Below are positions 2-16,142 of a stretch of DNA of 32,000 nucleotides, piece by piece. The DNA lies in assembly GCA_965219535.1 (NCBI GenBank), contig CBDCNV010000002.1, forward strand, positions 510,001 through 542,000. The letters run 5' to 3'. The position numbers and the translations under genes were made by a program. The notes beneath the pieces were generated by a model. It was given only the letters and a program-made list of their open reading frames with translations. It made no database searches and was not told where the DNA came from. This stretch comes from Opitutales bacterium (lineage in GTDB: Bacteria; Verrucomicrobiota; Verrucomicrobiia; Opitutales; PNEW01). Position 1 is the stretch's first letter, and the number at the start of each line of letters is the position of its first letter.

Positions 2-580
2 AAAAACACCGCGGTTAATATCATGATCCTAACAACCTATATCAGTTTCCTTCTCTACCGGCGAGGGAACAAAGTGGCTACGGTTTCATGGGCGCCGCTT
101 GGTCACACAGCCCAATTTCTGATTTTCGCGGTTACGATAATTTTTGTTATTATCATTGGTGTCGTTGGTTATTTCGTCGAAGCCTCAGTACGGATCGGAC
201 TTTCCGTTCCCCAGGTTATCTCTGTGCTATCCGCGATGATCGCCGTTACAATGATTGATGTATTCCTCTTTCGCAATGCGCGCATTGTCGGTCAGATTAG
301 ATGGGGAGAGATCCCCGCCAGGGCGCAATACATGCTATTTTTCCTCGCTGTCACTTTTACCTGGCTGATGGGACTCATGGGCTACGTCCGTTCCGGCCTC
401 CGCCTGCATTGGCATGTATACGAAGTGATGAAGGATACATCCGTTGACGCCTTTACCCCGACATTGGGATTCGCCGCCACCGTGGTTTCCAGTATCGTTA
501 TCATCTTCTTCATCTTTATCATGTTTAATTTCTGGCTTACCGGGCTTCTTCACAAGAAAGATTGGGAACCCAAAACTTGA
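2..580 (+). CDS. Polytopic membrane protein, 5'-truncated by the window edge; tentatively the C-terminal part of a cytochrome bd subunit I (CydA)-like protein
   Basis: The frame is open from nt 2, with no stop before the first ATG at 23, so the gene continues upstream. About 5 hydrophobic helices are present. The segment MGYVRSGLRLHWHVYEVMKDTS plus a final TM helix resembles the conserved GW..E.GRQPW...EVL + last-TM end of CydA. It is the first gene of a tightly spaced same-strand operon with three c-type cytochromes. Confidence 0.45.
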   Translation, partial: KNTAVNIMILTTYISFLLYRRGNKVATVSWAPLGHTAQFLIFAVTIIFVIIIGVVGYFVEASVRIGLSVPQVISVLSAMIAVTMIDVFLFRNARIVGQIRWGEIPARAQYMLFFLAVTFTWLMGLMGYVRSGLRLHWHVYEVMKDTSVDAFTPTLGFAATVVSSIVIIFFIFIMFNFWLTGLLHKKDWEPKT

Positions 581-1408: not shown

Positions 1409-2242
1409 ATGAATTACATTATCATACCCCTGGTCTTGTTCGTTTTATTGGTCTTACATTTACTCAGCAGGTATAAAAAGTTCTCCTTCATTAACTCACT
1501 CTTTTGGGCAGTAGCGTGGTGGATTGCTATTTATGTGATTTTAAAAAACGCGATTTTACCACCGCTTCCATCCTCTATTGTACAGATGTTTATGGCGATC
1601 ATTACGATTGCGCTCTTCTTTTATATCACGGCAGATACCCAGCGATTAAAGGAAACCATTCATCCGATTATTCAATTTCTCGTTAATCGAAAATTTACAC
1701 TACCTCTAGGTATCGTGATTATAATCATTCCGTTGCTTGTCGCGGGGAAGGTTTATTTGGGTTCCCAGGTAAAAATTGTTGCCCCGGTATTTGGTCGAAG
1801 TATCCATCCCGCACCGCCAACGGAAATTAATTATCAAGGCAGACAGTTAATGCTTAATGACCTTGAAAATCCGTATCGTCATTTAGAGACGGATAACCCC
1901 GCCGAGTTTCAGGAACACGTTGAAGAAGGCCGTAAAGTATATTACAATAATTGTGTTTTCTGCCATGGTGACACCTTGGACGGGAAAGGAATTTTTGCCC
2001 ATGGATTCAATCCGATACCTGCCAATTTTGCTGACGTTGGCACGATTGCGCAATTGCAGGAATCCTATGTCTTCTGGCGGGTGGCCAAGGGAGCGCCCGA
2101 TCTCCCTGACGAATCAGGACCCTGGAGCTCTGCCATGCCCGCGTGGGAAAAATTCCTAACCGAAGATGAAATTTGGGACGTCATTCTTTTCATTTACGAT
2201 TTTACCGGGCACAAGCCTAGGGCGAAAATGGAGCACCACTAA
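1409..2242 (+). CDS. Integral-membrane (about 4 TM) monoheme c-type cytochrome
   Basis: Four N-terminal hydrophobic helices, then a class-I cytochrome c domain (NNCVFCHGDTLDGKG ... SAMPAW ... EIWDVILFIY). The ATG directly abuts the upstream TAG (1406-1408), which suggests translational coupling. Confidence 0.8.
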   Translation: MNYIIIPLVLFVLLVLHLLSRYKKFSFINSLFWAVAWWIAIYVILKNAILPPLPSSIVQMFMAIITIALFFYITADTQRLKETIHPIIQFLVNRKFTLPLGIVIIIIPLLVAGKVYLGSQVKIVAPVFGRSIHPAPPTEINYQGRQLMLNDLENPYRHLETDNPAEFQEHVEEGRKVYYNNCVFCHGDTLDGKGIFAHGFNPIPANFADVGTIAQLQESYVFWRVAKGAPDLPDESGPWSSAMPAWEKFLTEDEIWDVILFIYDFTGHKPRAKMEHH

Positions 2243-2258: not shown

Positions 2259-3869
2259 ATGAAATCAAGCATGCAATTTTCTAAGAAGAGCAGTTCGCGA
2301 CAGCTTTCATATGCCCTGACTTTCATCGGTTTATTTACAACCGGTATCGTATACTCTGGCGAAGTGAACCTGGGAACAGAAGTGGAGCTAGCGGCAGGAA
2401 AAAAATTGTATACTAATTATTGTGCTCATTGTCATGGGGTTGATGGAGACGGTAAAGGATCCGCGAGTCGGTACTTTCATCCCAAACCAAGAGACTTTAG
2501 GAGAGGGATATATAAACTGCGCAGTACGGATAGCGGTGAACTACCCACCGATGAGGACATCATTCAAGTTATTAAAAGAGGCATGCCTTATACCGGGATG
2601 CCCGCGTTCACCGATTTTAGTGAAGAAGAATACCAAAATCTCACCTATTATTTGAAAACTTTCAATGAAGATTTTACCGATCCGGATTTTATCGTAGATC
2701 CACTCACTTTTCCTGAAGCCCCTCCTTACAGTGAAGAATCAGCTTTGAAGGGAAAGGAGATTTACACTATCAATGAGTGCTATGGCTGTCATGGTGAAAA
2801 TGGGCGAAGTGATGGGGTATCGGCCCTCAAGCTTGAAGATGGATTTGGTAAGATAAAATATCACATCCGGCCAGCTGATTTAACAAAAAGATGGACATTC
2901 AGACGAGGGGCAACACGCGAAGACATGTATCGAGCCTTTACGACTGGCTTGAATGGAACGCCGATGCCATCCTATAAAGATTCGATAACTCCTGAAGACC
3001 GGTGGCATCTTGTAGATTATATTTATTCACTTTCGGACAAGGATGAACCGAACTATTCTACGACGATAATCGCGGAGTATACCGAAGAAGAAATTGATCT
3101 TTCACAAGGTAAGGCTTTTTTTGAAAATAGCGAAGCTGCGCTCTTTCCCCTTGTCGGGCAAGTCATCGAGCCAGGGCGGGAGTTTTTCCCGTCGGCAAAT
3201 GCGATCGAAGTCAGAGCGGTCTACAATCATGAGGATATTGCATTTATGCTATCCTGGAATGACATGAATGCGGAAATCGAAGGTAGTAACGCTCCCGACA
3301 TTGCAGTTGAGAAATTCCATCTCGATAAACCGGAAAGTCAGGAGAAAACATTGGTTGTTGAAGATAGCGTGAAAAAGTATTCCGATGCAGTTGCGTTACA
3401 AATTCCCAGTGTCATGCCTGAGGGATTTAAAAAACCCTATTTCCTGTACGGTGATAAAAAGAAAACCGTTGATGTATCCTTTCTAGATCTGGCCACTAAA
3501 AATGTTGTAAAACAATATACAGGTTATGGCTATAATCGGCTTACAGCTGTAGACAATGAGACTGTAACTGCGCACTCGAATTACGATAACGGTGAATGGT
3601 CAGTAATCTTTAAATACAATCGCAATTTGGTTGCTGAAGAAGGTCTATCCTTTATCGAGGAAAGTTTCATTCCGCTTTCGTTTTATGTATGGGATGGCTT
3701 TAACAACGAAAGGGGCGTTGATAGTAGTATTACCGCATGGTACAGTCTATATTTAAAGTCTTCGGTTGAGGAATCTCCGATAATCCCAATGCTTATATAC
3801 GGACTCCTCACTCTCTTTATAGAATTAATTATTGTCTTCCTGATGAGGAAGAAATTTTCCACCGCTTGA
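2259..3869 (+). CDS. Diheme cytochrome c fused to an ethylbenzene dehydrogenase gamma-type (EB_dh / DOMON-like) heme-b domain, with a C-terminal TM anchor
   Basis: Signal/anchor at the N-terminus. CAHCH and CYGCH motifs sit in two cytochrome c domains (PRDF..G.YKLRST.SGELPTDEDI...GMPAF). The C-terminal half (IEVRAVYNHEDIAFMLSWND... YSDAVALQIP ... GEWSVIFKYNR ... FYVWDGFNNERG) fits the EB_dh fold family. The final 25 aa are hydrophobic. Confidence 0.7.
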   Translation: MKSSMQFSKKSSSRQLSYALTFIGLFTTGIVYSGEVNLGTEVELAAGKKLYTNYCAHCHGVDGDGKGSASRYFHPKPRDFRRGIYKLRSTDSGELPTDEDIIQVIKRGMPYTGMPAFTDFSEEEYQNLTYYLKTFNEDFTDPDFIVDPLTFPEAPPYSEESALKGKEIYTINECYGCHGENGRSDGVSALKLEDGFGKIKYHIRPADLTKRWTFRRGATREDMYRAFTTGLNGTPMPSYKDSITPEDRWHLVDYIYSLSDKDEPNYSTTIIAEYTEEEIDLSQGKAFFENSEAALFPLVGQVIEPGREFFPSANAIEVRAVYNHEDIAFMLSWNDMNAEIEGSNAPDIAVEKFHLDKPESQEKTLVVEDSVKKYSDAVALQIPSVMPEGFKKPYFLYGDKKKTVDVSFLDLATKNVVKQYTGYGYNRLTAVDNETVTAHSNYDNGEWSVIFKYNRNLVAEEGLSFIEESFIPLSFYVWDGFNNERGVDSSITAWYSLYLKSSVEESPIIPMLIYGLLTLFIELIIVFLMRKKFSTA

Positions 3870-3888: not shown

Positions 3889-4659
3889 CTAAGAATTATC
3901 TTGTATCGCCTGTCGTGCCGCTTTCGACGTCTGATCCGAAGCATTCGTGAGAAACACTGTATCAGCACCAGAGGCCAACATATTAAAGCCGATTGAATGG
4001 GCGTATTTTATAATCTCTGGGGAGTGTGCGGGCATAACAGAGAATTTACCTGATTTTTTACTTGCTTGAGCTACTGCCTCCATATCATTCCCCAACGTTT
4101 CTCTTGTACGTGGAACACCCATGGACACCCCTCGTCTTAAGAGGATGTCATCGGGGCCAAGAAATAGCGCATCTATGCCATCAAGCGCAACGATGGCTTC
4201 AGCATTCTCTACCGCCTCTGGTGTTTCGATCTGGGCAATGAGCATCGTGTCTTCATTCGCGTTTTGAGAAAAATCACGGCTTTTCATGTCGATTATACGA
4301 CGTCCACCAAAAGATCGCTCTCCGAGGGGAGGGAACTTCGCGGCACTAACGATAGCTTTTGCCTCTTCTACGGTGTTAACGAGGGGGACAATAATGCCGT
4401 TTGCGCCCGCATCGAGAAACATACCAATATTGCTCGATTCATGCGAGGGAACGCGAGCAATTGCCGGTAATTCCATGAGCTCACAAACTCTTATCAGATC
4501 TAACACATCCTTATAAGCAAGTTGTCCGTGTTGTCCATCGATCCATACCCAATCCCAATCCTTGCCGATCCGCTCAAGGATACCAGGTGCTGGATAACTA
4601 ATCGCGAAACCGAACTGAGTTTTCCCCGCTCTTACATTTTCTATAAATTGTTTCATCAT
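3889..4659 (-). CDS. HpcH/HpaI family aldolase (2-keto-3-deoxy-acid aldolase class II)
   Basis: Length is 256 aa. Family-typical blocks are present: WVWIDGQHG, ARVPSHE, GANGIIVPLVNT.EEA, PP.G.RSFGG, IAQIET.EAV.N...I....GIDALFLGP.D. Confidence 0.8.
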   Translation of the reverse strand: MMKQFIENVRAGKTQFGFAISYPAPGILERIGKDWDWVWIDGQHGQLAYKDVLDLIRVCELMELPAIARVPSHESSNIGMFLDAGANGIIVPLVNTVEEAKAIVSAAKFPPLGERSFGGRRIIDMKSRDFSQNANEDTMLIAQIETPEAVENAEAIVALDGIDALFLGPDDILLRRGVSMGVPRTRETLGNDMEAVAQASKKSGKFSVMPAHSPEIIKYAHSIGFNMLASGADTVFLTNASDQTSKAARQAIQDNS

Positions 4660-4713: not shown

Positions 4714-5607
4714 TCACTGATCTTTCGTTGTGATCACGCAGTACTCAGTATAACTTTGTGTTTTTCTAAAACTGATCGTCTCTAGAAAAGAGAAATCAAC
4801 TTCATGAGTGGATAGCTTAGGGATTTCTATCGACGAGCTGATTGTAGTGGATAAATGTTTTATCAGAAGACCCAATAGCATCGTTTCCTTTTCCCGGTTT
4901 TTACACCCGAGACCTAAAATTTTTAATGGTGAATGACCGTCAACATTATCAGATTCGTCTTCAACATAGAATAGATAAGCGGCAATTCCATCTACGTCTG
5001 GGATGCCGATCCCTTTGATTTCTTTTTTTCGATTATTGAGCGTTTGTGTTCTACGATCCCATGCAAGCAGGGTTTCATCAGAAAGCGTATCCTTCGCGGT
5101 TTTCTTAAGGTAGCGATCCTCAAGATCGTCAAGTTCAACTGGAATGACCCATTGAGATGAAGTGGGTGGGGTTAAAGGAGTTGTGGTCGAAAAGTCCGAA
5201 TAATTTCTGTGCGCTGCAAATTCAAGTTTCTCAAAAAAAGCAGCTAAGTCTTTTCGTTTATCTGGAATCACGACAGTCAACAACGGAGGACCCAATACGG
5301 CCATTTTATCGATCAAAGAAGTCACGAGATGATGTCCGTAATCATGCCCCCCGTAGTTGGGATGAATGCCCAACCTCAATATTAACGAAGAAGCCTCTCT
5401 CTTCGCCGCTATTAAAACACCAACAGGATCTTTATCATCCAGTGCAAGCATGCATGAACTGGACCAAAGATTGAGCTGTTTAATTTCCCTCTTAATACCC
5501 CCTAAAGTGAGTGAGGCAGCATCGGGAAAATGAACGTCGTAACACCGGTTTACGGCATCGACGAGTAATGGAATATCATCAGGGCGACAAAACCTGAAAG
5601 AGGGCAT
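4714..5607 (-). CDS. GNAT-family N-acetyltransferase-like protein with an extra C-terminal domain
   Basis: The N-terminal 150 aa have the GNAT layout. An acetyl-CoA loop-like segment is present: LGIHPNYGGHDYGHHLVTSLIDK (compare V.P.yrG.GiG..L). The C-terminal half is not recognisable. Confidence 0.5.
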   Translation of the reverse strand: MPSFRFCRPDDIPLLVDAVNRCYDVHFPDAASLTLGGIKREIKQLNLWSSSCMLALDDKDPVGVLIAAKREASSLILRLGIHPNYGGHDYGHHLVTSLIDKMAVLGPPLLTVVIPDKRKDLAAFFEKLEFAAHRNYSDFSTTTPLTPPTSSQWVIPVELDDLEDRYLKKTAKDTLSDETLLAWDRRTQTLNNRKKEIKGIGIPDVDGIAAYLFYVEDESDNVDGHSPLKILGLGCKNREKETMLLGLLIKHLSTTISSSIEIPKLSTHEVDFSFLETISFRKTQSYTEYCVITTKDQ

Positions 5608-5613
5608 GCACGA

Positions 5614-7662
5614 TTAATAGTCGGAACGTTTTTTATCCAATTCTGACATAACGCTGACCTCATTGAGGTTTTCCTTCGGAGGCTGATTGGGGGGATAGTC
5701 ATTCACTTCTTCACTACCATAAACCGGTGGCGCAGCGGTTCTTGAATTGCCGTTACCATTGCTTTGCGAAGTGATCATTTCCTCCATCATCATGCGACCA
5801 ATTTCGATACCTTTTTCGACAAGATCGAGATCGATCGTTATTACCTTACTTTCCAAAGCTACGCTCTCTATTCGTTCCTGCACCTTATCGCGCATAAAAC
5901 CTGAGGGGACACGCAATATTCGTTCTGTGGCATCCGGAGTCCATTCAAACACTGATTTTAAAGGTGTGCCTTTTGTATCCCGGGCAATTAATTTAACCCC
6001 ACCGTCAATTTCATGCTCAAGAAGTGTGTTCAGATCTTCGGGTGAGGAAGATTGAGCTTGTTCTTCCAGGCTGTCTTCATGACCGAGCTCCTTTAAAATT
6101 CCCTCGGCGAATTCTAAAGTTACTGCACTCAAGCGCCGCATCCGGGCTGCTTTTTCAATGTACGCTTTTGCCCGTCTTTTCTGATAAGCGTCTTTAATCG
6201 CAGGTAAGAGTTTACGGGCTTCTTGGGTCCAGGTTAGTTTTTTTCCATCATAGGTGGTTTCATCTTTTGCGCCCCCTTCCGATGCAACAATTTTTTCTAT
6301 TGTTTCCGGAGTAATGATTTCAAAATTTGCCGATCCGCAAACGGCGCACTTTACAGGGTTTTCCTCTTTAGCGGTGGTTCCGCAACCTATACAAAGTGCG
6401 GTGTTCCCTTTGCGCGCTTGATTAAAAGCTAAAGTTTCCGCGAGTTTATCAGTTGCTTTCGCTGCTTGTTTGGGCATGAAACGATCAATCGCTTCATCGA
6501 TTAAAGAGTTGGTAACGACACTGTGACCTTTTTCCACCGCAAGCCGTAATATCCCGGTGCGGGCAATGCCTTTCACGAGCGGAGGAACCCTGGTCATCCG
6601 CTCTTCGGCTTCCTGTGTCCATTGAATACTCTCTTCCGCTTTACGGTCGAGTTCCGGATGGACCAAAACTGAACTGAGTAAAATATCACAGGGGGCCATG
6701 CGTAAAAGATTATCCGTGTTGCTTCCCAAACCGGAGTCTTCAAGGTCACTATGAACCCCGATTCTGCCTACGATCAACAGCCAGGGAGGATTTTTGCGCG
6801 CGTAATCCAGAATCTTTTGAAAGGCTTTCCCGTCGAGTAAAACTTTTTCCGCTTCTATGCCTTTTTCTTTCAGCATCTTTTCCGCGACCTCAAGATGTGA
6901 CTGGTAGATCTGCGCGAGTCCAGTGTCGATTATCTCCTCATGCAATTGGTTCTGTTCTTCAAAGCGGAAAACCTTAGCGGCTTTATCGGTAAGGACATCG
7001 ACGATCCCATTGAATACCATGTAATGGAGATAGGGGTCATATATACCAATGAGGGTAATTTTTTTATTAAATTTTTCTGCCAACTCGGCGGCCGTCATCA
7101 GTGCTCCAAACGACTGTGGGCTACCGTCAATCCCGACGAGGATCGTATCGCGCTCCGGCTCATCCTCCTTGGGGACATGTTTTACAACCCAGATATCACC
7201 TTTTCCATGACGGGTAACACCCTGACAAACTGCGCCGATCTGGCTGTCTTTGGTTTTCCCAATACCCTTAATGCCGAGAACCGTAAGATCATAATCGGAA
7301 GCTTCCATATCGTTTAAGATTTGTTCATGGTGCTTCCCATCTATCATTTTTCGTTCCATTTCCAGCCCCTCCGCTTGGCAGAGCTTATCCATCTCATTGA
7401 GATAGCAATCGGAAATGAGCTTTAACCCCATTGTAATTAAACTGTCGTGAATCTTCCGCTGCCTTTCTAATTCCGTCTCCTGAAGGTATTCGCCGGGCAG
7501 TGTAAACTCCATTTGCTTGAATCGATAATCATGCATCTTGGCGGCATAAACATGATTGCCGGTCATTGAGGAGTTGAATTTCTTCCCAATTTGAATCGCG
7601 ATATTGATCGCTTGATTTGAATAGTCAGAGTTATCTACAGGAACGAGAATCGATTTAAACAT
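5614..7662 (-). CDS. Tandem universal stress protein (USP) domains fused to three PCP_red-like modules and a Zn-ribbon
   Basis: USP signatures: ILVPVDNSDYS, then ILVGIDGSPQS ... LLIVGRIG...GLGS. Three W-T-x-(E/D)-A ... P ... modules follow (IQWTQEAEERMTRVPPLVKGIA..., LTWTQEARKLLPAIKDAYQ..., FEWTPDATERILRVPSGFMRDKV...). CIGCG...CAVCG lies between modules 1 and 2. Confidence 0.7.
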   Translation of the reverse strand: MFKSILVPVDNSDYSNQAINIAIQIGKKFNSSMTGNHVYAAKMHDYRFKQMEFTLPGEYLQETELERQRKIHDSLITMGLKLISDCYLNEMDKLCQAEGLEMERKMIDGKHHEQILNDMEASDYDLTVLGIKGIGKTKDSQIGAVCQGVTRHGKGDIWVVKHVPKEDEPERDTILVGIDGSPQSFGALMTAAELAEKFNKKITLIGIYDPYLHYMVFNGIVDVLTDKAAKVFRFEEQNQLHEEIIDTGLAQIYQSHLEVAEKMLKEKGIEAEKVLLDGKAFQKILDYARKNPPWLLIVGRIGVHSDLEDSGLGSNTDNLLRMAPCDILLSSVLVHPELDRKAEESIQWTQEAEERMTRVPPLVKGIARTGILRLAVEKGHSVVTNSLIDEAIDRFMPKQAAKATDKLAETLAFNQARKGNTALCIGCGTTAKEENPVKCAVCGSANFEIITPETIEKIVASEGGAKDETTYDGKKLTWTQEARKLLPAIKDAYQKRRAKAYIEKAARMRRLSAVTLEFAEGILKELGHEDSLEEQAQSSSPEDLNTLLEHEIDGGVKLIARDTKGTPLKSVFEWTPDATERILRVPSGFMRDKVQERIESVALESKVITIDLDLVEKGIEIGRMMMEEMITSQSNGNGNSRTAAPPVYGSEEVNDYPPNQPPKENLNEVSVMSELDKKRSDY

Positions 7663-7772
7663 GTATCTTACCTATCGGGTTTTAGTATGAATTAAACTGT
7701 CTTAGTAATGGATTTCGCAGCGTCAAAATCATTCGAATAATTGGATATGATGTCAATGCAATGTGGTTACAT

Positions 7773-9107
7773 TTAGTGTTTTCCAAAGATTTTCGGGGTC
7801 GGCATTTTCTTGCGTATTTCAGAAAGAACATCACCCGTCACCCGGGAGATATTGTTTTTTTGACAATAGGATTCTACGGATTTCTTTACCATGCCGCGAA
7901 CGAATGCGGGAATCTCTTTCATCCGGTCCTTCGCATCATTTCCCCATTCAATCGCATCTGATTCATTGAGATTGTGGGGGAGGCCGTATACCAATCCGGG
8001 ATAGTTGTTGATTGACTCGCGTGAATATTTTCCCGGTGTAAAATCACAGAGCGGATCCTCAGCCATGTAATCTCCGGTCGCTCCGAATGAGCGGGCACGA
8101 CAACCCCCGCATACACCGTTAAATTCACATGCCCCGCAACGATCGCCTAGCTCATTGCGGCGGCGAATTTTTATAAACAGTTCGGAGTCATTCCAAACCT
8201 CAGCCATTGTTTGCTTTTGCAAATTACCTCCAAATACAGGGAGATAGGGACAGGGAGTCATGTCACCATTAGGGCGAATACCCATATATTGAGTTCCCGC
8301 TGGGCAACCTCCCGCTCCACCGGTAAAGGACTTTAAAAACTTCGAATCGGGAGCTTCCTCATATAGGTGTTTAATATAATGGGGAGCACATTTCGCATTG
8401 GTGACCATTTTCCCGTCATATTTTTTCTGGATATGTGAAAGTGTCTTTAAAACTTCATTATATTGGTCCTGGCTGATTTCAGAGACGAACTGTCCACGAC
8501 CTGTGGGTACGAGAAAATAGAGATTAAAAACCTTGGCACCCATTTCCTGGTAAGCGTAATCGGCTATAGCTTCTATTTGATCAAAATTATGTTTTCCGAC
8601 CGTCGTTTGGACGATGAAGGAGAGGCCCGTGCGATGCAAAACTTTCGCTCCGTTAACCGTATTTTCCCAAGCGCCTTTTACCCCGCGAAATCTGTCGTGG
8701 AGTTCAGGATCGAGAGCGTCAAGCGAGAGCGACAGCCCTCGCAACCCGCTGTCTTTTAATATTCTCGCCAGGTTTTCTGTGATGAGGACACCATTTGTTC
8801 CACAGACGACCCAAAGATCTTTTTCACTGCCGTATTCTATGATCTCGAGAATATCCTTTCGCAGCAAAGGTTCGCCTCCAGTGAGGATGGTCAAAGCTTC
8901 GGGAGCAAAGTCAGCGATCTGATCAATGATTTCTTTACATTGAGTGGTGTTAAGTTCACTGCGATCAGCAAATCCATCGGTTGATAACCGGCGAACATCT
9001 TTTCCTCCCGCATCGAGGTAACAATGCTCACATTTTAAATTACAACGGTTAGTTAAATTCCATGAAATAACATAGGGCCGCTGAAATTTATTTACGTCTG
9101 TGTGCAT
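7773..9107 (-). CDS. Radical SAM / SPASM-domain enzyme with a C-terminal PCP_red-like module
   Basis: CNLKCEHC (C22/C26/C29, CxxxCxxC) preceded by ISWNLTNR. GGEPLL is present. A Cys-rich SPASM-like region follows (GGCPAG...MTPCPY...CGACEFNGVCGGCRARS). The C-terminal tail is IEWGNDAKDRMKEIPAFVRGMVKKSVESYCQKNNISRVTGDVL. Confidence 0.85.
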   Translation of the reverse strand: MHTDVNKFQRPYVISWNLTNRCNLKCEHCYLDAGGKDVRRLSTDGFADRSELNTTQCKEIIDQIADFAPEALTILTGGEPLLRKDILEIIEYGSEKDLWVVCGTNGVLITENLARILKDSGLRGLSLSLDALDPELHDRFRGVKGAWENTVNGAKVLHRTGLSFIVQTTVGKHNFDQIEAIADYAYQEMGAKVFNLYFLVPTGRGQFVSEISQDQYNEVLKTLSHIQKKYDGKMVTNAKCAPHYIKHLYEEAPDSKFLKSFTGGAGGCPAGTQYMGIRPNGDMTPCPYLPVFGGNLQKQTMAEVWNDSELFIKIRRRNELGDRCGACEFNGVCGGCRARSFGATGDYMAEDPLCDFTPGKYSRESINNYPGLVYGLPHNLNESDAIEWGNDAKDRMKEIPAFVRGMVKKSVESYCQKNNISRVTGDVLSEIRKKMPTPKIFGKH

Positions 9108-9128
9108 TTATAATGATTTTTGATTAAA

Positions 9129-9150
9129 CACGAATGAACACGAATAGACG
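9129..9150. repeat. Left terminal inverted repeat of GxxExxY cassette 1 (two tandem 10-nt units, cacgaatgaa / cacgaataga)
   Basis: cacgaatagac (9139-9149) is the exact reverse complement of gtctattcgtg (9591-9601). Over the full 20 nt, 17/20 positions are complementary to 9582-9601. Confidence 0.75.
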
Positions 9151-9154
9151 CTAA

Positions 9155-9586
9155 TTAAAGAACGATACGTTCCCACTCTAAAATTGGATTTGAAAAATTC
9201 AAAATCACGCCTACACGCAAACGAGTTATTTTCAAATAATTAATCATTTGGCCTCTTTCGCGGTCAGAAATGCATTCAATAACCTTTGTGTCCACAATAA
9301 CTGAATCGTAGACAATAAGGTCAGGAACATAATTTCCAACATTATTATCTTTATACGAAATTTCAAAAGCGGGCTGTTGAAGGTGAGGTATTTTCCGCAG
9401 TTTAAATTCAACTGTTAATGCGTTTTCATATGGCTTCTCATGAAACCCATGCCCAAGAAAATTTAAAACTTCGATAGCACAGCCAACAATTGCATACACC
9501 TCATCTTTCAAAAGAATATCTTTAGATAATGTTCGGTTGACCCCAGATAAATCGGTTAAGCTTGAATCATGTTCATTGGTGTCCAT
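9155..9586 (-). CDS. GxxExxY family protein (PD-(D/E)xK nuclease-like, PDDEXK_3)
   Basis: GFHEKPYENAL matches the GxxExxY signature. VPDLIVYDSVIVDTKV supplies D...(D/E)xK. Its size and C-terminal GVILNF are typical of the family. Confidence 0.8.
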   Translation of the reverse strand: MDTNEHDSSLTDLSGVNRTLSKDILLKDEVYAIVGCAIEVLNFLGHGFHEKPYENALTVEFKLRKIPHLQQPAFEISYKDNNVGNYVPDLIVYDSVIVDTKVIECISDRERGQMINYLKITRLRVGVILNFSNPILEWERIVL

Positions 9587-9602
9587 TCGTGTCTATTCGT
9601 GG
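9581..9602. repeat. Right terminal inverted repeat of GxxExxY cassette 1
   Basis: gtccattcgtgtctattcgtgg is the reverse complement of two cacgaatNNa units. The cassette gene's ATG (9584-9586) lies inside the repeat. Confidence 0.75.
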
Positions 9603-9628
9603 TTGATTTCCAGGTGTGGATACTTTTC

Positions 9629-10135
9629 TCACATTTCGAATTCTTCTTTTGCGCGGTCAAGGCATTCTTCGGTCACTTGGGTGAAACCCTTTTCGTGCGC
9701 GAATTTTTCTATGCCTTTTTTTGCCATGGGGCGGGCAAATTCGGGAATATTCTGTAAACGGACCATCGCCTGAGCCGTCCAGGGAAACTCGTCTTCATTC
9801 TTATTCGCGGAGTCGGTCTCTGAAGCTTCCATCATAGAATCGCGGGCCATTTGAGAAAAAGGACACTTAGCCGCGGGCTCCGAACTCGCATCGGTCATGT
9901 TCCCGCTTTCATCAAGGGTTATGCCCTGGGATTTCGATACTGTTTCTCCGCCGATTTCTACTCCCATCGAAGTGACCATCTGTGTTTCAAAGGCATTGGT
10001 CAGCATCGCGATCTCCATCAGGCAGTCCGGACATTCATAGCGAATGGATAGAGACCCATGATCATCAGGTTTTAGGGGAGCTTCATTTTTTACCAGTTTC
10101 ATCTGGGTGTTACAGGATGTGCATAAGAATTTCAT
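9629..10135 (-). CDS. Small Zn-ribbon protein with a C-terminal PCP_red-like module
   Basis: CTSC ... CPDC pair at the N-terminus. The C-terminus is FPWTAQAMVRLQNIPEFARPMAKKGIEKFAHEKGFTQVTEECL. The start codon lies 1 nt after the stop of the upstream Mrp-like gene. Confidence 0.65.
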   Translation of the reverse strand: MKFLCTSCNTQMKLVKNEAPLKPDDHGSLSIRYECPDCLMEIAMLTNAFETQMVTSMGVEIGGETVSKSQGITLDESGNMTDASSEPAAKCPFSQMARDSMMEASETDSANKNEDEFPWTAQAMVRLQNIPEFARPMAKKGIEKFAHEKGFTQVTEECLDRAKEEFEM

Positions 10136-10136
10136 G

Positions 10137-11018
10137 TTAAGCTTCCAGGGTATTCATTATTTTTGTTGCGATCTTTTGAAGAGAAATGTTGGTGGGAGAA
10201 CTGCTGGCACTGGCGGTAATCGTTCCTCGATCACATTGTTCAGCCACCGCGGGATCAAATGGGACTGAGCCCAGCAAAGGGATATCCAATTTGGCGTTAC
10301 CCGAAGGAAACAAGGGTTTTACTTCTTTGGAGTCGGCACAGTAATAGCCGCTCATGTTTTCGATATACCCGATAATGGGAGATGGAGTTTTCTTAATGGC
10401 CGCGATTGAACGCGCGACAACACCTTGCGAAACTTCAGAGGGGATGGTGATAAGTATGAACGACGTTTTGCTGCCAAAAAATTCTGCGAATTGAAAACAC
10501 CGTTCGGCACCGGGGGGAAGATCGATAAGGAGAAAATCTAATTGTCCCCAATCGGTATCAGCGAGGAAATCGGCGAGGGTTGAAAACTCTTTAGTCGCTC
10601 GCCATACATGGGAATCACCACTGGCCACACTTTTAAAATCTACCGCTTCCGATTCCGGCACCAAGGTACCAAAGGAGATGACGCCAATGCCAGATTTTGT
10701 TTTCGGGACGATAAGTCCATTCTGCCCGGGTATGAGCGGAACGTCAGTGAGACCGGCAAGACGTGCCAGGGCTGGACCGTTAACATCTGCATCGAAAAGG
10801 GAAACGCGTTTTCCTAAACGGTTAAATGCTGATGCAAGATACATTGAGATCGTGCTCTTACCCACTCCTCCTTTACCTGATCCAACTGCAATGACATATT
10901 TGATCCCGGATAGGTTTGCTTCAATTTTGGCTTTGTGCGCGACGACTTGTCCCATAATATTGGAACCGCCATCTCCAGCAAGGTCGGAGTAGGTTTTTAG
11001 TTCTTTCGAATCGTCCAT
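10137..11018 (-). CDS. Mrp/NBP35/ApbC-like SIMIBI P-loop ATPase, divergent (no CxxC cluster-binding motif)
   Basis: Deviant Walker A GSGKGGVGKST. DADVNGP and WGQLDFLLIDLPPG are present. IENMSGYYCADS occupies the position where canonical members have ENMS..(C..C). Confidence 0.8.
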   Translation of the reverse strand: MDDSKELKTYSDLAGDGGSNIMGQVVAHKAKIEANLSGIKYVIAVGSGKGGVGKSTISMYLASAFNRLGKRVSLFDADVNGPALARLAGLTDVPLIPGQNGLIVPKTKSGIGVISFGTLVPESEAVDFKSVASGDSHVWRATKEFSTLADFLADTDWGQLDFLLIDLPPGAERCFQFAEFFGSKTSFILITIPSEVSQGVVARSIAAIKKTPSPIIGYIENMSGYYCADSKEVKPLFPSGNAKLDIPLLGSVPFDPAVAEQCDRGTITASASSSPTNISLQKIATKIMNTLEA

Positions 11019-11124: not shown

Positions 11125-11466
11125 ATGCTTAGCTACAGCCTGTTAAAAACATTTCATCTTGCGGGGGTTTTCCTGTTTCTTACCGCACTGGCGATATTAT
11201 TTTTTTCCGATAACTTCAGCCGTCTTTTCAAGGTCATTTCCCATGTAGCGTTGTTTATTATTTTAATTACCGGTTTGGGGCTAGTCGTGCATTTAAGTAA
11301 TGGTGTGCCCCCTTGGGTAATAGGGAAATTTATCCTTTGGCTGCTATTATCTGCGGTCGGGATATTTGCAACCACCCGCCTCAGAAAATATCGATTAACC
11401 GTCTATAGCTTTTTAATATTGATGGCTTCTCTCGCAGCGTTTCTAGCTATTCATAAACCTTTTTGA
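11125..11466 (+). CDS. Small integral membrane protein (4 predicted TM helices), function unknown
   Basis: 113 aa, almost entirely hydrophobic helices. It is the only plus-strand gene between 3.9 and 28.9 kb. No confident family assignment can be made; any SirB2-like resemblance is weak. Confidence 0.5.
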   Translation: MLSYSLLKTFHLAGVFLFLTALAILFFSDNFSRLFKVISHVALFIILITGLGLVVHLSNGVPPWVIGKFILWLLLSAVGIFATTRLRKYRLTVYSFLILMASLAAFLAIHKPF

Positions 11467-11557: not shown

Positions 11558-11866
11558 TCACAGAACTAGATTCTGACCTTCTCTACCGACGCGTTTGATG
11601 GTGAGAGGCATCGTAGCAAAATTAAAAAGTAGACCGCTCTCGACTCCGGTTGCTTTCATGTATGAGCGAACCATAGTAAAATGTATAGCTTCCAAAGCTT
11701 TAATGGCCTTAAGTTCAATTACCACACTATTGTCTAAAAACAAATCTAACCGGTGCTCACAAATTCTTCTACTACGGTAATAGAGGGGAACACGTTTCTG
11801 CCTTTCAAAACTGATCTGCAGCCAATCCAGTTCAATACAAAGTGCCTCTTCGTAAAGTGATTCCAA
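11558..11866 (-). CDS. GxxExxY family protein (PD-(D/E)xK nuclease-like), N-terminally truncated or interrupted
   Basis: LDLFLDNSVVIELKA supplies D...ExK, and a C-terminal GLLFNF is present. The ORF as given starts at a TTG inside the signature. The same frame continues upstream as TSKIIAAAIAVHRDLGPGFLESLYEEAL, preceded by an in-frame TAA (11924-11926) and a possible GTG start at 11953. Confidence 0.7.
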   Translation of the reverse strand: MESLYEEALCIELDWLQISFERQKRVPLYYRSRRICEHRLDLFLDNSVVIELKAIKALEAIHFTMVRSYMKATGVESGLLFNFATMPLTIKRVGREGQNLVL

Positions 11867-12024: not shown

Positions 12025-12900
12025 TTAATTAGTGTGATGTAATTGCGCGAGTTCCTGAAGAATTTCATCGGGGGTCCACTCGTTTCCACGAAGCACTTTA
12101 ACCAATTTTCCGGAAGCATCAGCGATAACAGTTCGCAATGAATGGGCGATTTCTTCAGGGGAACTTTCATTTTGCACGACTGTTATTCCAAAATGCTCTG
12201 CAAAATTTACGATCCTTTTTCTTTCACCGGTAAAAAAACTCCATACCTCATAATCTGCATTGAGTGCATCACCATGTCGTTTAAGAACTTCTGGAGTATC
12301 ATAATCCGGATCAAAGCTTATCGAGATGAGCCTGGTTGTTGATTTTAAATCTTTGCTCTCGAGGAATGTTTTTTGCAGCGATTGAAAGTGAATATCCATA
12401 AGAGGACAAAAATTGGGCAGTGGGCAACGCGTATAGATAAAGGTCAGGATCAAATGCTTCCCTCGATACGCTTTAAAATGCTGCACGCTATTATCCTGGT
12501 CGATAAAAGCAGTATCCGGTAGAAGATCGCCTTTACGGAGTTGGGTGATACCATTTAGCGAGTTCTGTAAGGATTCATTGTTTATCAGCTCTTCAAACCC
12601 GATTTTTACAATAGCGGTGAGATAGGCTTCATTATCGGTCACTATAAGTTTCGCTTCGATAAAATCCCCCGGCATTCTCCCTTCAAGCAGGGTGACATCC
12701 TTTACTTTAAAAGGCATGGTCATTGCGGGCATAAAACCAGGTATTTCCTCATGTTTTAATGTGATTTCATTCTTCACTGAATAAATGGATATTACCTGTC
12801 CACGCAGATCGTAGATGACTTCTCTTGGAGCCGGGCGGCAGGATAGACAAAGGGTGATGAGAATAAAAATCGCAGGAAAGCTATGAAGCTTGGACATCAT
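12025..12900 (-). CDS. SCO1/SenC-family copper chaperone fused to an N-terminal CusF-like Cu(I)-binding domain
   Basis: N-terminal signal or lipoprotein-like peptide. ITLKHEEIPGFMPAMTMPFKV is a CusF-type Met/His motif. It is followed by a thioredoxin-fold SCO block, LILTFIYTRCPLPNFCPLM ... ISFDP..DTPEVL ... AHSLRTVIADASGKLV. Confidence 0.8.
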   Translation of the reverse strand: MMSKLHSFPAIFILITLCLSCRPAPREVIYDLRGQVISIYSVKNEITLKHEEIPGFMPAMTMPFKVKDVTLLEGRMPGDFIEAKLIVTDNEAYLTAIVKIGFEELINNESLQNSLNGITQLRKGDLLPDTAFIDQDNSVQHFKAYRGKHLILTFIYTRCPLPNFCPLMDIHFQSLQKTFLESKDLKSTTRLISISFDPDYDTPEVLKRHGDALNADYEVWSFFTGERKRIVNFAEHFGITVVQNESSPEEIAHSLRTVIADASGKLVKVLRGNEWTPDEILQELAQLHHTN

Positions 12901-13067: not shown

Positions 13068-13934
13068 TCAATTTTCGGTCGGTTCGCTTATTGGAGTAAA
13101 TACCAGTTTTACATCGGGATCGGGGTGCGGAATTGCAGAAAGGAGCATGCGGGTGTAGGCGTGCTGCGGGTTTTCAAATATCGTTTCCGTCTCTTCTATC
13201 TCCACGATTTTTCCCTGATGCATCACGGCAACTCGGTCGCTAATGTGTCGAACCACACTTAGGTCATGAGCGACAAATATATAAGTTAAATTTAATTCCT
13301 CCTGAAGGTCTTCAAGCAAATTAATAACCTGGGCTTGCACCGAGACGTCGAGCGCGGAAACGGCTTCATCACATACGACAAGAGACGGGCTCATTATAAG
13401 TGCGCGTGCGATGCCGATACGTTGTCGCTGGCCACCACTGAAAGCATGGGGATATCTTTGCCGGTGCTCCGGTTTCATTCCCACTTTGACCAGCATGTCA
13501 TCGACGCGGTCGATCAATTCCTTCCCCTTTGCCAGTTTGTGGATGTACAATGGCTCACCCACAATATCTCCAACCGTCATCCGGGGGTTGAGGGAAGAAA
13601 ATGGGTCCTGGAAAATCATTTGCATTTGCGTGCGCAATGGCTTGAGCTCCCTCTCCGTTAGTTTGACCAAGTCGATTGCTTTCCCATTGGTTCTGAATAT
13701 CACTTCACCGTTAGTGGGTTTGAGGGCGCGCAAAATCGTTCGCGCGCAGGTTGTTTTTCCTGAACCGCTCTCTCCGACCAATCCCAGGGTTTCCCCTGGA
13801 AATATATTGAAACTTACATTGTCGACAGCCTTGACGACATCGATCTGCTTTCTGCCAAACCCCTGACTGTATATAGGAAAGTGCTTGCTGAAATTTTTAA
13901 CCTTTAGGAGAGGTTCTACTCCATGATCATTCAT
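13068..13934 (-). CDS. Opp/Dpp-type ABC transporter ATP-binding protein (OppF/DppF-like)
   Basis: Walker A GESGSGKT, signature FSGGQRQR, Walker B LVVCDEAVSALD, H-loop FVAHDL. The start overlaps the upstream gene by 4 nt (ATGA). Confidence 0.9.
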   Translation of the reverse strand: MNDHGVEPLLKVKNFSKHFPIYSQGFGRKQIDVVKAVDNVSFNIFPGETLGLVGESGSGKTTCARTILRALKPTNGEVIFRTNGKAIDLVKLTERELKPLRTQMQMIFQDPFSSLNPRMTVGDIVGEPLYIHKLAKGKELIDRVDDMLVKVGMKPEHRQRYPHAFSGGQRQRIGIARALIMSPSLVVCDEAVSALDVSVQAQVINLLEDLQEELNLTYIFVAHDLSVVRHISDRVAVMHQGKIVEIEETETIFENPQHAYTRMLLSAIPHPDPDVKLVFTPISEPTEN

Positions 13935-14962
13935 ACCTTTATCGCTCCTTTAAATTTTCTTGCCCCGCAGCAGGATACCTGTCGACCGTTAGGTAACATC
14001 TCCATAATAGGATTATCTCCCACGTCACAGACGCCAGGTATCGAATCGGGACAGCGTGGATGAAAGGGGCAGCCGGCGGGTAGATGGGTGAGGGAGGGGA
14101 CATTTCCTATAATAGAAGGCAGACGAGCTTGTTTTGTTTCATTTCTCGGCAATGACTTTAGCAGTCCAACCGTATAGGGGTGAAGAGGATCTTTTAAGAC
14201 CTCTCGCACCGTGGCCTGTTCAACCAGTCTCCCCAAATACATAACAGCGACGTCATCAGCGATCTGTGCGACGACTCCCAAGTCATGAGTAATAAATATT
14301 ACCGAAGTCCCGAGATCTCGCTGTAAGCTTTTAATCAAGTCAAGAATCTGAGCCTGGATCGTGACATCAAGCGCGGTGGTCGGTTCATCGGCGATGAGCA
14401 CTTCCGGCTGGCAAACCAGAGCCATTGCGATGACCACGCGTTGACGCATGCCTCCACTAAATTCGTGAGGATATTGTTGAAGTCGACGTTCGGGTTCAGG
14501 GATGCCTACCTTGCCGATCATTTCGATCGCCAGTTTTTCGGCTTCCTTAACAGTGACATTCTGATGCAAAAGGATAGCTTCACAGATTTGATTTCCGATC
14601 GTGTGCACCGGGCTTAGTGCGGTCATTGGTTCCTGGAATATCATACTGATGAGCCCGCCCCGTACCTGGTAAAGCATATCCGATTTTTCGGTTAATGCCG
14701 TAATATCGATTGGGCTTTTATTTTTCGGATAGAGAGTGATCTTACCCCCCGCGATTTGACCGGGTTTCTGAATCAAGCGGAGAATGGAAAAGGCGGTTAC
14801 ACTTTTTCCACACGCACTTTCCCCTACGATGGCAAGAACCTTACCGCGCTCTAATGAAAATGTTACTCCATCCACCGCCGAGAGCACACCCTCCTCAGTA
14901 GTGAAGGTCACCTTGAGGTCATTGACACTTAGAACAATATCTTTTTTTTCGTCTTCGGCCAT
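13931..14962 (-). CDS. Opp/Dpp-type ABC transporter ATP-binding protein (OppD/DppD-like) with a Cys-rich C-terminal extension
   Basis: Walker A GESACGKS, signature FSGGMRQR, Walker [13 protein letters not shown]-loop FITHDL. The C-terminus is PYT..LL.S.P ... CPFHPRCP...C...CC. Confidence 0.9.
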
Positions 14963-14963
14963 T

Positions 14964-16142
14964 TTATCGGGTTACATGAGAAGAATAGGGATCGGCTGCA
15001 TCGCGTAAGCCATCACCCATAAAGTTATAGGCGAGGACAGTTAAAATAATAGATATCACAGGCATGAGAAGCCAAGGGTAATTAGCGACAACTTGCAGAT
15101 TCATGCATTCCTGGAGCATGACGCCCCAACTTACAATGGGCGGTCGCAACCCCAACCCCAGAAAACTCAATGCGGTCTCACCCAGGATCATGCCCGGTAC
15201 GCTCAAGGTAAGGGTGACAATAATATGACTGGTAAATCCGGGCAAGAGATGGCGGAAAATAATTCGCCCATGGCTGGCCCCTATGAGATACGCTGCGACC
15301 GCGTAATCCTCTTCGCGCAGCGAGAGAATTCTCCCGCGAACGACTCGGGCGAGCCCCGTCCAGGAGAGGAGGCTGAGGACAATAGTAATGGCAAAATATA
15401 CCCTTAAAGCCGGCCAGTCACTTGGCATAATAGCGGCGAGGGCGAGCCATAACGGTAACTGTGGGAAGGCGTTTACAATCTCAATCGTTCGCTGAATCAA
15501 ATTATCGACTCGACCGCTGAGATATCCGGAAATACCACCGATTGTAACACCTAAAATAAATGTGATGACAATGGCAACGATCCCAATGGATAGGCTGATC
15601 CGGGAACCGTAAATGATACGGCTGAAAATATCGTGACCAAATTTATCGGCACCGAGAAAATAGAAAGTTGGCAGCGGTGTTTCCTCCTCGCTATCTGGTG
15701 GTACGTAAGCGTTGTGATCAACACCCAAAAAACGGCGCTCCATCGGGATCAGCCCCCAGAGCTTGTAAGGTTCGCCTTTAGCGAAAAAACTCAGGGGTAT
15801 GAAATCTTCCTTTTGTTCGATATAATATTTTTTAAAAGTGATAGGATCGATATTGCGATGCATGGCATTGACGTTGATACCATGACTGAAATTAATCTTT
15901 GGGAGTTGTGGTGGACAATAAGCGTGATCGAGGTCACGCCAATCTCGGCCATAAGGTGCGAAAAATTCCGCAAAGATGGCCATGAGGTAGAGAACAATTA
16001 AAACATAAAGTGAGGCGACCGCCAAACGATGTTTGGAAAAGCGTAAACGGATAAGCTGCCACTGGGAGAGAGTCGCGGTGCTCAGTTCAATCAACTCTTC
16101 ATCACCATTTAACGGGGGAGAAGGTGTTGGTTTCTCTGCCAT
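14964..16142 (-). CDS. Opp/Dpp-type ABC transporter permease (OppC/DppC-like)
   Basis: Six hydrophobic segments. EAA-type loop EEDYAVAAYLIGASHGRIIFRHLLPG. C-terminal GDGLRDAADP. It is 1 nt from the downstream gene and 2 nt from the upstream gene. Confidence 0.9.
   Translation of the reverse strand: MAEKPTPSPPLNGDEELIELSTATLSQWQLIRLRFSKHRLAVASLYVLIVLYLMAIFAEFFAPYGRDWRDLDHAYCPPQLPKINFSHGINVNAMHRNIDPITFKKYYIEQKEDFIPLSFFAKGEPYKLWGLIPMERRFLGVDHNAYVPPDSEEETPLPTFYFLGADKFGHDIFSRIIYGSRISLSIGIVAIVITFILGVTIGGISGYLSGRVDNLIQRTIEIVNAFPQLPLWLALAAIMPSDWPALRVYFAITIVLSLLSWTGLARVVRGRILSLREEDYAVAAYLIGASHGRIIFRHLLPGFTSHIIVTLTLSVPGMILGETALSFLGLGLRPPIVSWGVMLQECMNLQVVANYPWLLMPVISIILTVLAYNFMGDGLRDAADPYSSHVTR

Follow-up and report, generated by a model that had tools for sequence, protein, structure and literature searches.

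The window examined here, a stretch of 32,000 nt from an Opitutales bacterium, contains on its minus strand a block of genes (Pfam and NCBIfam profile calls; Table 1) that encode, in order of transcription, an Mrp-like P-loop ATPase, a small cysteine-rich protein, a radical SAM/SPASM enzyme, a tandem universal stress protein (USP) and a GNAT-like protein. The second, third and fourth of these proteins all carry PCP_red, a ~45-aa helical module shared with the C-terminus of the protochlorophyllide reductase subunit BchB/ChlB, and a cytochrome bd-like oxidase operon converges on the block from the left end of the window. An earlier note on this DNA, made by reading the sequence, had placed an Mrp-type ATPase at the head of the block, translationally coupled to the small PCP_red protein. 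Both points hold: the ATPase is a strong PF10609 match, and its TAA stop codon is followed, after a single base, by the ATG of the small PCP_red gene. At the opposite end, reading of the junction places only 6 nt between the stop codon of the USP gene and the start of the GNAT gene, and the cluster extends to the GNAT gene. None of the five cluster proteins contains a hydrophobic segment in a hydropathy scan, and all five are therefore predicted to be cytoplasmic. The GNAT gene, an intruding GxxExxY gene and the loss of the second cysteine of the Mrp-like CxxC motif, all treated below, are points absent from the earlier note.

Sharing of PCP_red (PF08369) among the enzyme, the small protein and the USP protein is directly observed, with scores above the Pfam gathering score of 32.5 bits in all three (78.1 bits over two stretches in the USP protein, 52.8 in the small protein and 45.2 in the radical SAM tail). 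A family hidden Markov model (HMM), trained solely on tails from the radical SAM and small-protein families and run on the USP protein, located three collinear modules in it. The middle one is degenerate: it is full-length and collinear with an E value of 3e-5 in a single-sequence search space, and it lies below the thresholds of the window-wide scan. The five copies first noticed in three same-strand genes are hence true PCP_red homologues, four of them strong and one weak, and a scan of all open reading frames (ORFs) in the window found none in the remaining ones. Residues W388, A392, R395, P400, F402, R404 and G405 of the radical SAM tail are invariant across 24 sequences, and the module of the small protein aligns both with the last 50 residues of ChlB and with the stand-alone cyanobacterial domain 2L09 (Asr4154). 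The BchB/ChlB C-terminus, 2L09 and 2KRU are the same helical module, with the W..A..R...P.F.R motif, and the relationship is one of true homology. Dark-operative protochlorophyllide reductase (DPOR) has in addition a nitrogenase-like BchN/BchB core and BchL, which the cluster lacks. As had been anticipated, the system is not a DPOR: the best match to the BchB model (TIGR01278) reaches 42.9 bits against a cutoff of 490, this and a second match of 42.7 bits cover model positions 446-512 only, and no BchN, BchB or BchL gene lies in the window. The module forms the tail of BchB in DPOR; in the present organisms, which are not phototrophs, it occurs instead on a radical SAM enzyme, on a tandem USP and on a small protein rich in Cys. 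A USP-PCP_red protein of 'Candidatus Moanabacter tarae' (P0130, 70% identical) bears the NCBI name 'Light-independent protochlorophyllide reductase subunit B', a misannotation attributable to its PCP_red tail.

The radical SAM enzyme matches the Pfam Radical_SAM (87.9 bits) and SPASM (42 bits) domains ahead of its PCP_red tail. Its seven best NCBIfam models are AhbD (TIGR04545, 311.6 bits), NirJ2 (300.5 bits; cutoff 515), TIGR04053 (of unknown function), a haloarchaeal pseudo-SAM family, AhbC (167.1 bits; cutoff 650), NirJ1 and NirJ (158 bits; cutoff 500), all seven scoring below their cutoffs (395-650 bits). The matches span whole models (positions 1-339 of TIGR04545 and 1-324 of TIGR04055), and other PCP_red-tailed enzymes score 279-315 bits with AhbD. 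Peptide maturases, in contrast, score 90-134 bits, with PqqE and MftC at ~120-134 bits, corresponding to E values of 1e-35 to 1e-39 against 1e-93 for the tetrapyrrole-enzyme profiles. Judged by these profiles, the predicted enzyme belongs to the AhbD/NirJ2 group, which modifies tetrapyrrole propionates. The CX3CX2C motif (C22/C26/C29) and seven SPASM cysteines (268, 286, 324, 327, 333, 336 and 354) are invariant in 24 sequences, and three [4Fe-4S] clusters are therefore expected, as reported for AhbD. AhbD and NirJ2 have the same CX3CX2C radical SAM core and full seven-Cys SPASM domain. The window enzyme differs from AhbD in its ~60-aa PCP_red tail, which the reviews examined do not describe for AhbD and which is absent from the nearest tail-less relatives, and in its partners, an Mrp-like ATPase and PCP_red proteins in place of AhbA, AhbB or AhbC. 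The organisms that carry it are oxidase-bearing aerobes, unlike carriers of AhbD and NirJ2. The window contains no gene of the alternative haem biosynthesis (AHB) pathway (ahbA/B/C) or of the coproporphyrin pathway.

The radical SAM-PCP_red family is large, with over 6000 members at an E value of 1e-10 or lower, and every one of the best 120 homologues (61-87% identical) has the tail. A search against 1.84 billion cluster representatives showed one to four PCP_red tails on nearly every top-scoring full-length relative (36-48% identity); tail-less relatives start at ~265 bits, and the nearest of them are also AhbD/NirJ2-like at sub-threshold scores. One bipartition of a neighbor-joining tree of 120 cores, a rough tree without support values, separates all 31 tailed enzymes together with 8 tail-less ones from 81 tail-less cores; four of those eight matched the query only partly and may be fragments. 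A midpoint-rooted 'clade' was dropped as meaningless, and the bipartition analysis was used instead. Orthologues from Brocadia and other Planctomycetota (L075, L076 and L082) are longer (629-696 aa), carry three PCP_red modules on the enzyme itself, and have genes for a histidine kinase and a response regulator downstream, in place of the Mrp or USP genes. An AlphaFold model of the window enzyme is of moderate quality (predicted local distance difference test, pLDDT, 76).

The Mrp-like protein lies far above the PF10609 cutoff (27.1 bits) and below the equivalogs MrpORP (178.6 bits; cutoff 450) and ApbC (123.4 bits; cutoff 348). With Mrp/ApbC/NBP35/NUBPL proteins such as MrpORP its family shares PF10609, the deviant Walker A motif GKGGVGKS, invariant here, and, in most members, the CxxC motif; it differs in being obligately paired with a PCP_red protein and in having a short conserved peptide where those proteins have a DUF59 or ferredoxin-like N-terminal domain. 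The window copy itself reads CxxS. The ENMS...CxxC signature, presumably the ligand pair of a bridging [4Fe-4S] cluster, is kept in 65 of 67 Mrp-like orthologues. An early reading in which the whole family was without CxxC was dropped on this count, the motif being lost in the lineage of the window only. Residues 8-25 form a conserved N-terminal peptide, K.Y.D..GDGGS.I..QV; we compared it with the autoinhibitory DGEGSVQVH peptide of BchL, which covers the [4Fe-4S] cluster, and the likeness was too weak to use and may be a coincidence. In the small PCP_red protein, C5, C8, C35, C38 and C91 are conserved in 97-100% of 32 orthologues. The earlier description of this protein as a Zn-ribbon stands as far as four conserved cysteines are concerned, and a ribbon is suggested by those cysteines only. 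Its linker contains a KCPF motif (residues 89-93) whose cysteine is invariant in the same 32 orthologues and which, in our view, resembles a Cys-Pro haem-regulatory motif.

The USP protein contains two Usp domains (PF00582, 116.8 bits over two stretches) and a four-cysteine knuckle, C424/C427/C439/C442, that is invariant in 36 sequences. Its homologues number at least 4678 at E 1e-5 or better and are ~60% identical across phyla. Its AlphaFold model is moderate (pLDDT 74; predicted template modeling score, pTM, 0.56), and the N-terminal half resembles ATP-binding tandem USPs, among them Rv2623 and 3AB8 (TTHA0350; Foldseek E 4e-16, TM(target) 0.83). When checked for the G-2x-G-9x-G-(S/T) pattern, domain 1 reads G130-x2-G133-x9-G143-A, with Ser in most orthologues at the last position, and domain 2 reads G299-x2-G302-x10-G313-S. 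Likeness in fold to ATP-binding tandem USPs is the sole ground on which the protein may be called nucleotide-sensing, as had been suggested. The adjacent GNAT protein is a marginal Acetyltransf_1 match (PF00583, 22.5 bits against a cutoff of 20.7), and a profile of its family matches YpeA (E 1.3e-9) and RimI (2.8e-8) in the PDB over aa 43-154 only. In mycobacteria, a USP is the substrate of a GNAT lysine acetyltransferase that depends on cAMP. Here, too, a USP gene and a GNAT gene lie side by side, as a putative regulatory pair; unlike the mycobacterial pair, the GNAT here has no cyclic-nucleotide-binding domain, and the USP has three PCP_red modules and lies in an oxidase operon.

The oxidase operon at the left end of the window consists of a truncated CydA-like gene followed by three genes for cytochromes c, the last fused to an EB_dh domain. 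The product of the first, which is cut by the window start, shares 62% identity over 191 aa with the C-terminus of a 570-aa CydA-like protein in a related locus (L002). The CydA-like orthologues of L002 and L015 match only positions 2-238 of the 418 of Cyt_bd_oxida_I, and on this basis show the OR-N2 trait of a CydA homologue limited to the N-terminal helices, without the quinol-binding part. A crude hydropathy scan of the CydA-like protein gave 10 segments, several of them long enough for two helices (OR-N2 has 14 helices). In 73 of 80 related loci, the gene after the CydA-like one encodes the dihaem cytochrome c. The operon agrees with the published account of OR-N2 operons, in which an EbdC homologue accompanies several cytochromes c (Murali, Gennis and Hemp, 2021). 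Nitrospira moscoviensis encodes a bd-like oxidase with two cytochromes c and alt_NxrC ('bd-like_3'), highly transcribed and of undetermined role, and this bd-like cluster, whose gene layout the window operon matches as well, is conserved in Nitrospina and anammox bacteria (Mundinger et al.). OR-N2, 'bd-like_3' and 'TO_1' share the part-length CydA-like protein and, after it, cytochromes c with an EbdC/NxrC-like haem b subunit, and the window operon probably corresponds to 'TO_1' of Candidatus Manganitrophus. The OR-N2, Nitrospira and Candidatus Manganitrophus papers do not mention radical SAM, USP, Mrp or GNAT partners, and these accessory genes are the new element. In the closest relatives, a gene for a COX2-family protein with a CuA-like C-x3-C-x3-H-x2-M motif (L001, 20340-21131) lies directly upstream of the bd-like subunit, at a place that in the present genome would be past the left edge of the window. 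With the CusF-SCO1 copper chaperone gene at 12025-12900 also in the neighborhood, the bd-like complex may include a CuA subunit.

Conservation of the neighborhood was assessed in both directions. A scan for the radical SAM gene, with one genome per species, gave 80 loci from Opitutales (77% identity, the closest), Acidobacteriota, Poribacteria, Nitrospiraceae, Brocadia and other Planctomycetota, Myxococcota, Bdellovibrionales, Binatia, Gemmatimonadaceae and Anaerolineales. Of 74 loci, 54 have the Mrp-like gene on the same strand no more than 2.5 kb upstream of the radical SAM gene. USP-PCP_red was found within 10 kb of the enzyme gene in 34 of the 55 long loci, and of the 33 long loci with an enzyme identity of 50% or more, 19 have the bd-like operon within the same distance. 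The reverse test, seeded on the CydA-like protein in metagenome contigs, returned the order CydA-like, cytochrome c, cytochrome c, cytochrome c-EB_dh, USP-PCP_red, GNAT. USP-PCP_red was present in 19 of 22 informative loci and directly 3' of the fourth oxidase gene in 15, the GNAT gene came directly after it in 10 of 16, and the radical SAM gene was found in 5 of the 11 loci of at least 18 kb. A Bdellovibrionales locus (L015) holds all of these genes in a single-strand array: CtaA-like, haem o synthase, Mrp-like, small PCP_red, radical SAM, and then the oxidase genes, CydA-like and three cytochromes c, ending with USP-PCP_red and GNAT. The system thus consists of two units, a trio of Mrp-like, small PCP_red and radical SAM-PCP_red genes and a pair of USP-PCP_red and GNAT genes within the oxidase operon; these units frequently adjoin each other, and do so in the window. 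The co-conservation that the earlier note had called for extends over at least ten phyla, and the accidental adjacency it had considered is contradicted by a gene order kept across phyla in the forward and reverse tests alike.

Haem-related genes accompany the cluster in several relatives. A haem o synthase scoring above the equivalog cutoff abuts cluster genes in L013, where its neighbor is the radical SAM gene itself, and in L015, and three Poribacteria loci have one close by (258.9 bits in Poribacteria; cutoff 210). A weak HemQ/chlorite-dismutase-like gene is found nearby in six Poribacteria loci. The Poribacteria enzyme is flanked by a CopD/HemJ-like membrane protein (a weak match), an extra small PCP_red protein and a Zn-ribbon/HEAT protein with phycobilin-lyase-like repeats, and some Poribacteria loci also contain COX3, COX4, SCO and a DUF420-like membrane protein (read by eye, without a profile). 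No hemY/hemH-type family was among the recurrent neighbor clusters annotated, which are a subset of all such clusters. The cluster is tied broadly to terminal oxidases and their haems, with OR-N2 as the commonest partner in the lineages closest to the window. The earlier note had placed haem genes on both sides of the block; the cytochrome c/EB_dh genes and the SCO1/CusF gene that it named are indeed present, and the statement can be sharpened to one partner, an OR-N2-type bd-like operon that usually has USP-PCP_red as its fifth gene. The tetrapyrrole link it considered plausible is favored here as well, since AhbD and NirJ2 score best, far above PqqE and MftC, and haem o synthase adjoins the cluster in some relatives. 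The anaerobic role it attached to that link finds no support, the neighbors being aerobic oxidase genes.

We propose, tentatively and at not quite an even chance, that the block serves the haem cofactors of terminal oxidases as a conserved accessory module in the cytoplasm, attached here to an OR-N2-type operon; family proximity and gene linkage are what suggest a role in haem maturation or delivery. The radical SAM/SPASM enzyme would perform AhbD-type chemistry on the propionate side chains of an iron tetrapyrrole, most likely the conversion of coproheme to haem b, with a variant haem also possible. Coupling and motifs are observed for the Mrp/ApbC-type ATPase and the small PCP_red protein, of which the former would carry [4Fe-4S] to the three-cluster enzyme and the latter would act as an adaptor; a three-cluster enzyme beside a family that keeps CxxC in 65 of 67 members provides matching Fe-S demand and supply, which we count in favor of the proposal. 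PCP_red would be a shared recognition element that brings its carriers to a common partner or ligand. Finally, with the USP gene normally fifth in the oxidase operon and the GNAT gene next to it, as observed, the USP/3xPCP_red protein and its GNAT partner might couple, regulate or target the supply according to nucleotide or energy state.

Two systems may serve as precedents for such a mechanism by analogy. AhbD occurs without the other AHB enzymes in organisms that use the coproporphyrin pathway (PMC13564367), and the established reactions of the group are the conversion of coproheme to haem b by AhbD and propionate removal by NirJ (PMC10114771). HemW, a radical SAM protein, inserts haem b into respiratory nitrate reductase (PMC10114771), and is thus a radical SAM protein that serves a membrane respiratory enzyme with haem; the analogy is functional only, as HemW belongs to the unrelated HemN/CgdH-like subfamily and has no SPASM domain, PCP_red module or dedicated ATPase.

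Several observations weigh against this proposal. The AhbD score of the enzyme (311.6 bits) is below the model cutoff of 500, and its substrate is thus not established. No haem biosynthesis gene lies in the window, and the Mrp/small-PCP_red/radical-SAM trio can also occur among unrelated genes (L164). A bd-like operon was found within 10 kb in none of the 22 long loci whose enzyme is less than 50% identical (mainly Poribacteria), and the tie may therefore be to oxidases or haem generally and not to OR-N2; those same loci contain USP-PCP_red in 13 and the Mrp-like gene in 14 of the 22. In the Mrp-like proteins of the window and of two relatives (L001 and L083), residues 227-230 read C-A-D-S in place of CxxC; in this lineage the Ser may take over as a ligand, or else the protein may have altered its carrier function. 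The DPOR literature examined does not state a role for PCP_red.

In a more specific and speculative form of the proposal, which we consider unlikely as a whole, the enzyme, instead of simply producing haem b, would make or hand over a modified iron tetrapyrrole specific to the OR-N2 oxidases of nitrite oxidizers, anammox bacteria, Acidobacteriota, Verrucomicrobiota and others. PCP_red would then act as a portable module for carrying tetrapyrroles or handing them off, found a single time in chlorophyll synthesis, as the BchB tail, and repeatedly here, and the Mrp-like ATPase and a nucleotide-sensing USP scaffold would gate delivery to the membrane complex.

The strongest competitor to an oxidase-dedicated module, which we regard as doubtful, is that the enzyme is a housekeeping oxygen-independent coproheme decarboxylase, an AhbD isozyme that serves the coproporphyrin-dependent pathway and makes haem b for all haem proteins, whose position near oxidases would reflect general haem demand while the USP and GNAT proteins belong to the oxidase only. 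The ranking of AhbD and NirJ2 as best families, the solitary AhbD of coproporphyrin-pathway organisms and the occurrence of the trio among unrelated genes all suit this account, as does the suggestion that an AhbD-like enzyme may replace ChdC without oxygen (PMC10114771); the HemQ/ChdC-like gene near the cluster in six Poribacteria loci is what would be expected of an aerobic/anaerobic isozyme pair. Yet the enzyme and the USP protein of the oxidase operon share a rare module, which points to a physical or functional tie between them, and 13 of the 22 long loci that have no bd-like operon nearby still have USP-PCP_red close to the enzyme. The score well below the AhbD cutoff, and the lack of a hemY/hemH-type family in the annotated subset of neighbor clusters, argue in the same direction.

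Because SPASM enzymes commonly modify peptides or proteins, the enzyme might instead be a maturase akin to QhpD, anSME or PqqE that installs a cross-link or protein-derived cofactor in a subunit of the bd-like complex or in a small neighbor, with the PCP_red proteins as substrate-recruiting adaptors. Tight linkage to a multi-subunit respiratory complex would accord with this, and so would the closest folds identified by Foldseek in the PDB (PqqE, SuiB, SkfB and CteB); that ranking, however, is biased and uninformative on substrate class, because no AhbC, AhbD or NirJ is present in the PDB match lists. The difference in E value noted above places the enzyme with tetrapyrrole enzymes and not with PqqE or MftC, and no small precursor-like ORF is conserved beside it across phyla. 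We regard a maturase as improbable.

An equally improbable alternative, and one compatible with a haem accessory module, assigns PCP_red to the docking of SIMIBI ATPase dimers, formed by BchL in DPOR and by the Mrp-like protein in the cluster, so that the PCP_red proteins would be alternative clients or regulators of one ATPase engaged in ATP-gated Fe-S or electron delivery and not in tetrapyrrole handling. It draws on the pairing of PCP_red with a SIMIBI ATPase gene in both contexts (the L protein of DPOR and the Mrp-like protein), on the translational coupling of the small PCP_red gene to the ATPase gene and on the W..A..R...P.F.R motif conserved between ChlB and the cluster proteins. Against these stand the 20 of 74 loci with no ATPase gene upstream, the Brocadia-type enzymes with three modules and no adjoining ATPase gene, and the absence of any report of such a contact in the DPOR literature examined. 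Chance adjacency of unrelated genes linked by no more than a common small domain, for which only the separate occurrence of parts of the cluster speaks, is very hard to credit, given an order kept across Verrucomicrobiota, Acidobacteriota, Bdellovibrionota, Binatia, Poribacteria and others, with partners within 10 kb in 35-75% of loci, when a random pair of families would be expected together in well under 1% (a rough estimate for ~20 genes in a genome of some thousands).

The components of the proposed haem accessory module are of known kinds, and what is new is their combination: a tailed AhbD-like enzyme, Mrp-like and PCP_red partners, and a USP-3xPCP_red/GNAT pair in a bd-like operon. Our literature searches found no description of this gene combination. 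Complexes of the bd-like type have been put forward as terminal oxidases or key complexes in the respiration of Nitrospira, Nitrospina, anammox bacteria and Candidatus Manganitrophus and are widespread in soil Acidobacteriota, and their cofactors and assembly are not described in the literature examined; the accessory set offers a concrete handle on which haem they carry and on its route there. The cluster is also the first non-photosynthetic context for the BchB C-terminal module, and it draws attention to a large AhbD-like family now annotated only as 'radical SAM protein'.

Table 1. Features of the PCP_red gene block and its surroundings in the 32,000-nt window (aa, amino acids; modules are listed beneath the gene that contains them).
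Feature	Position	Strand	Evidence
CydA-like membrane protein (OR-N2-type subunit I), C-terminal third, cut by window start	2-580	+	62% identical to L002
Dihaem cytochrome c, N-terminal anchor, operon gene 2	590-1408	+	Cytochrom_C, Cytochrome_CBB3; CxxCH at aa 61, 192
Membrane-anchored monohaem cytochrome c, operon gene 3	1409-2242	+	One CxxCH, several hydrophobic segments
Dihaem cytochrome c fused to EB_dh (EbdC/NxrC-like haem b), operon gene 4	2259-3869	+	Cytochrome c + PF09459
HpcH/HpaI aldolase, between GNAT gene and convergent oxidase operon	3889-4659	-	Profile call
GNAT-like protein, 297 aa, N-terminal half YpeA/RimI-like	4714-5607	-	Acetyltransf_1 22.5 bits
Tandem USP - PCP_red - four-Cys knuckle - degenerate PCP_red - PCP_red protein, 682 aa	5614-7662	-	Usp 116.8 bits, PCP_red 78.1 bits
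PCP_red module 1 of USP protein, aa 344-396	6475-6633	-	Family HMM 43 bits; Pfam stretch 348-391
CxxC...CxxC knuckle of USP protein, C424/C427/C439/C442	6337-6393	-	Alignment
Degenerate PCP_red module 2 of USP protein, aa 475-525	6088-6240	-	Family HMM 10 bits
PCP_red module 3 of USP protein, aa 572-615	5818-5949	-	Family HMM 24 bits
Radical SAM/SPASM enzyme, predicted AhbD/NirJ2-like group, 444 aa, C-terminal PCP_red	7773-9107	-	Profiles
PCP_red tail of radical SAM enzyme, aa 388-431	7815-7946	-	Pfam 45.2 bits
GxxExxY/PDDEXK_3 gene between small PCP_red and radical SAM genes	9155-9586	-	Pfam, NCBIfam
Small PCP_red protein, 168 aa: N-terminal four-Cys knuckle, KCPF motif, C-terminal PCP_red	9629-10135	-	PCP_red 52.8 bits
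PCP_red module of small protein, aa 119-163	9647-9781	-	Pfam
Mrp/NBP35/ApbC-type (NUBPL-type) P-loop ATPase, 293 aa	10137-11018	-	PF10609 189.5 bits
Four-helix membrane protein, 113 aa, divergent from Mrp-like gene	11125-11466	+	Weak SirB match below cutoff
CusF-SCO1/SenC copper chaperone	12025-12900	-	Pfam

Some genes within or beside the block do not belong to it. The GxxExxY/PDDEXK_3 gene between the small PCP_red and radical SAM genes is an intruder outside the system and is not conserved in the block: its slot is occupied by a 23S_rRNA_IVP gene in the close relative L001 (9555-9941) and is empty in L003. A second GxxExxY/PDDEXK_3 gene lies at 11558-11866(-) and is 25% identical to the first (E 1e-10); both occupy intergenic slots of the cluster, and the one between the small PCP_red and radical SAM genes looks like a hot spot for small, possibly mobile ORFs. 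The HpcH/HpaI aldolase gene, conserved only in the closest relatives L001 and L083, is likewise outside the system, and the SCO1 copper chaperone gene, present in 10 of 82 related loci, is a loosely associated respiratory neighbor. Homologues of the 113-aa membrane protein adjoin the Mrp-like gene in L001, L002 and L003 only, making it a possible cluster member confined to close relatives; we compared it with the CopD/HemJ-like protein of Poribacteria, and the two are unrelated. A promoter and terminator scan gave no enrichment over shuffles; a TTGACA-17-AATGAT sequence upstream of the USP gene, at 7756-7728(-), is a lead only.

The remainder of the window contains several features of separate interest. 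Two tandem genes, at 16145-19444(-) and 19470-22754(-), encode ~1095-aa proteins in which a family-5 solute-binding domain is fused to an ABC permease domain, an unusual architecture, and lie upstream of OppC-like, OppD-like and OppF-like genes (13068-16142). A MobA-like nucleotidyltransferase gene adjoins that of an XdhC-type molybdenum-cofactor insertion factor at 22840-24378(-), with no molybdoenzyme gene in view. The gene at 24464-28321(-) encodes a 1285-aa protein with eight passenger-associated transport repeats (PATR) in a stretch of raised G+C content (0.50-0.56, against ~0.45 elsewhere) that may have been acquired horizontally. Two adjacent genes for PhyH-family dioxygenases lie at 29185-31013(+), and in some Poribacteria loci the radical SAM gene, too, has PhyH-family genes on its flanks.

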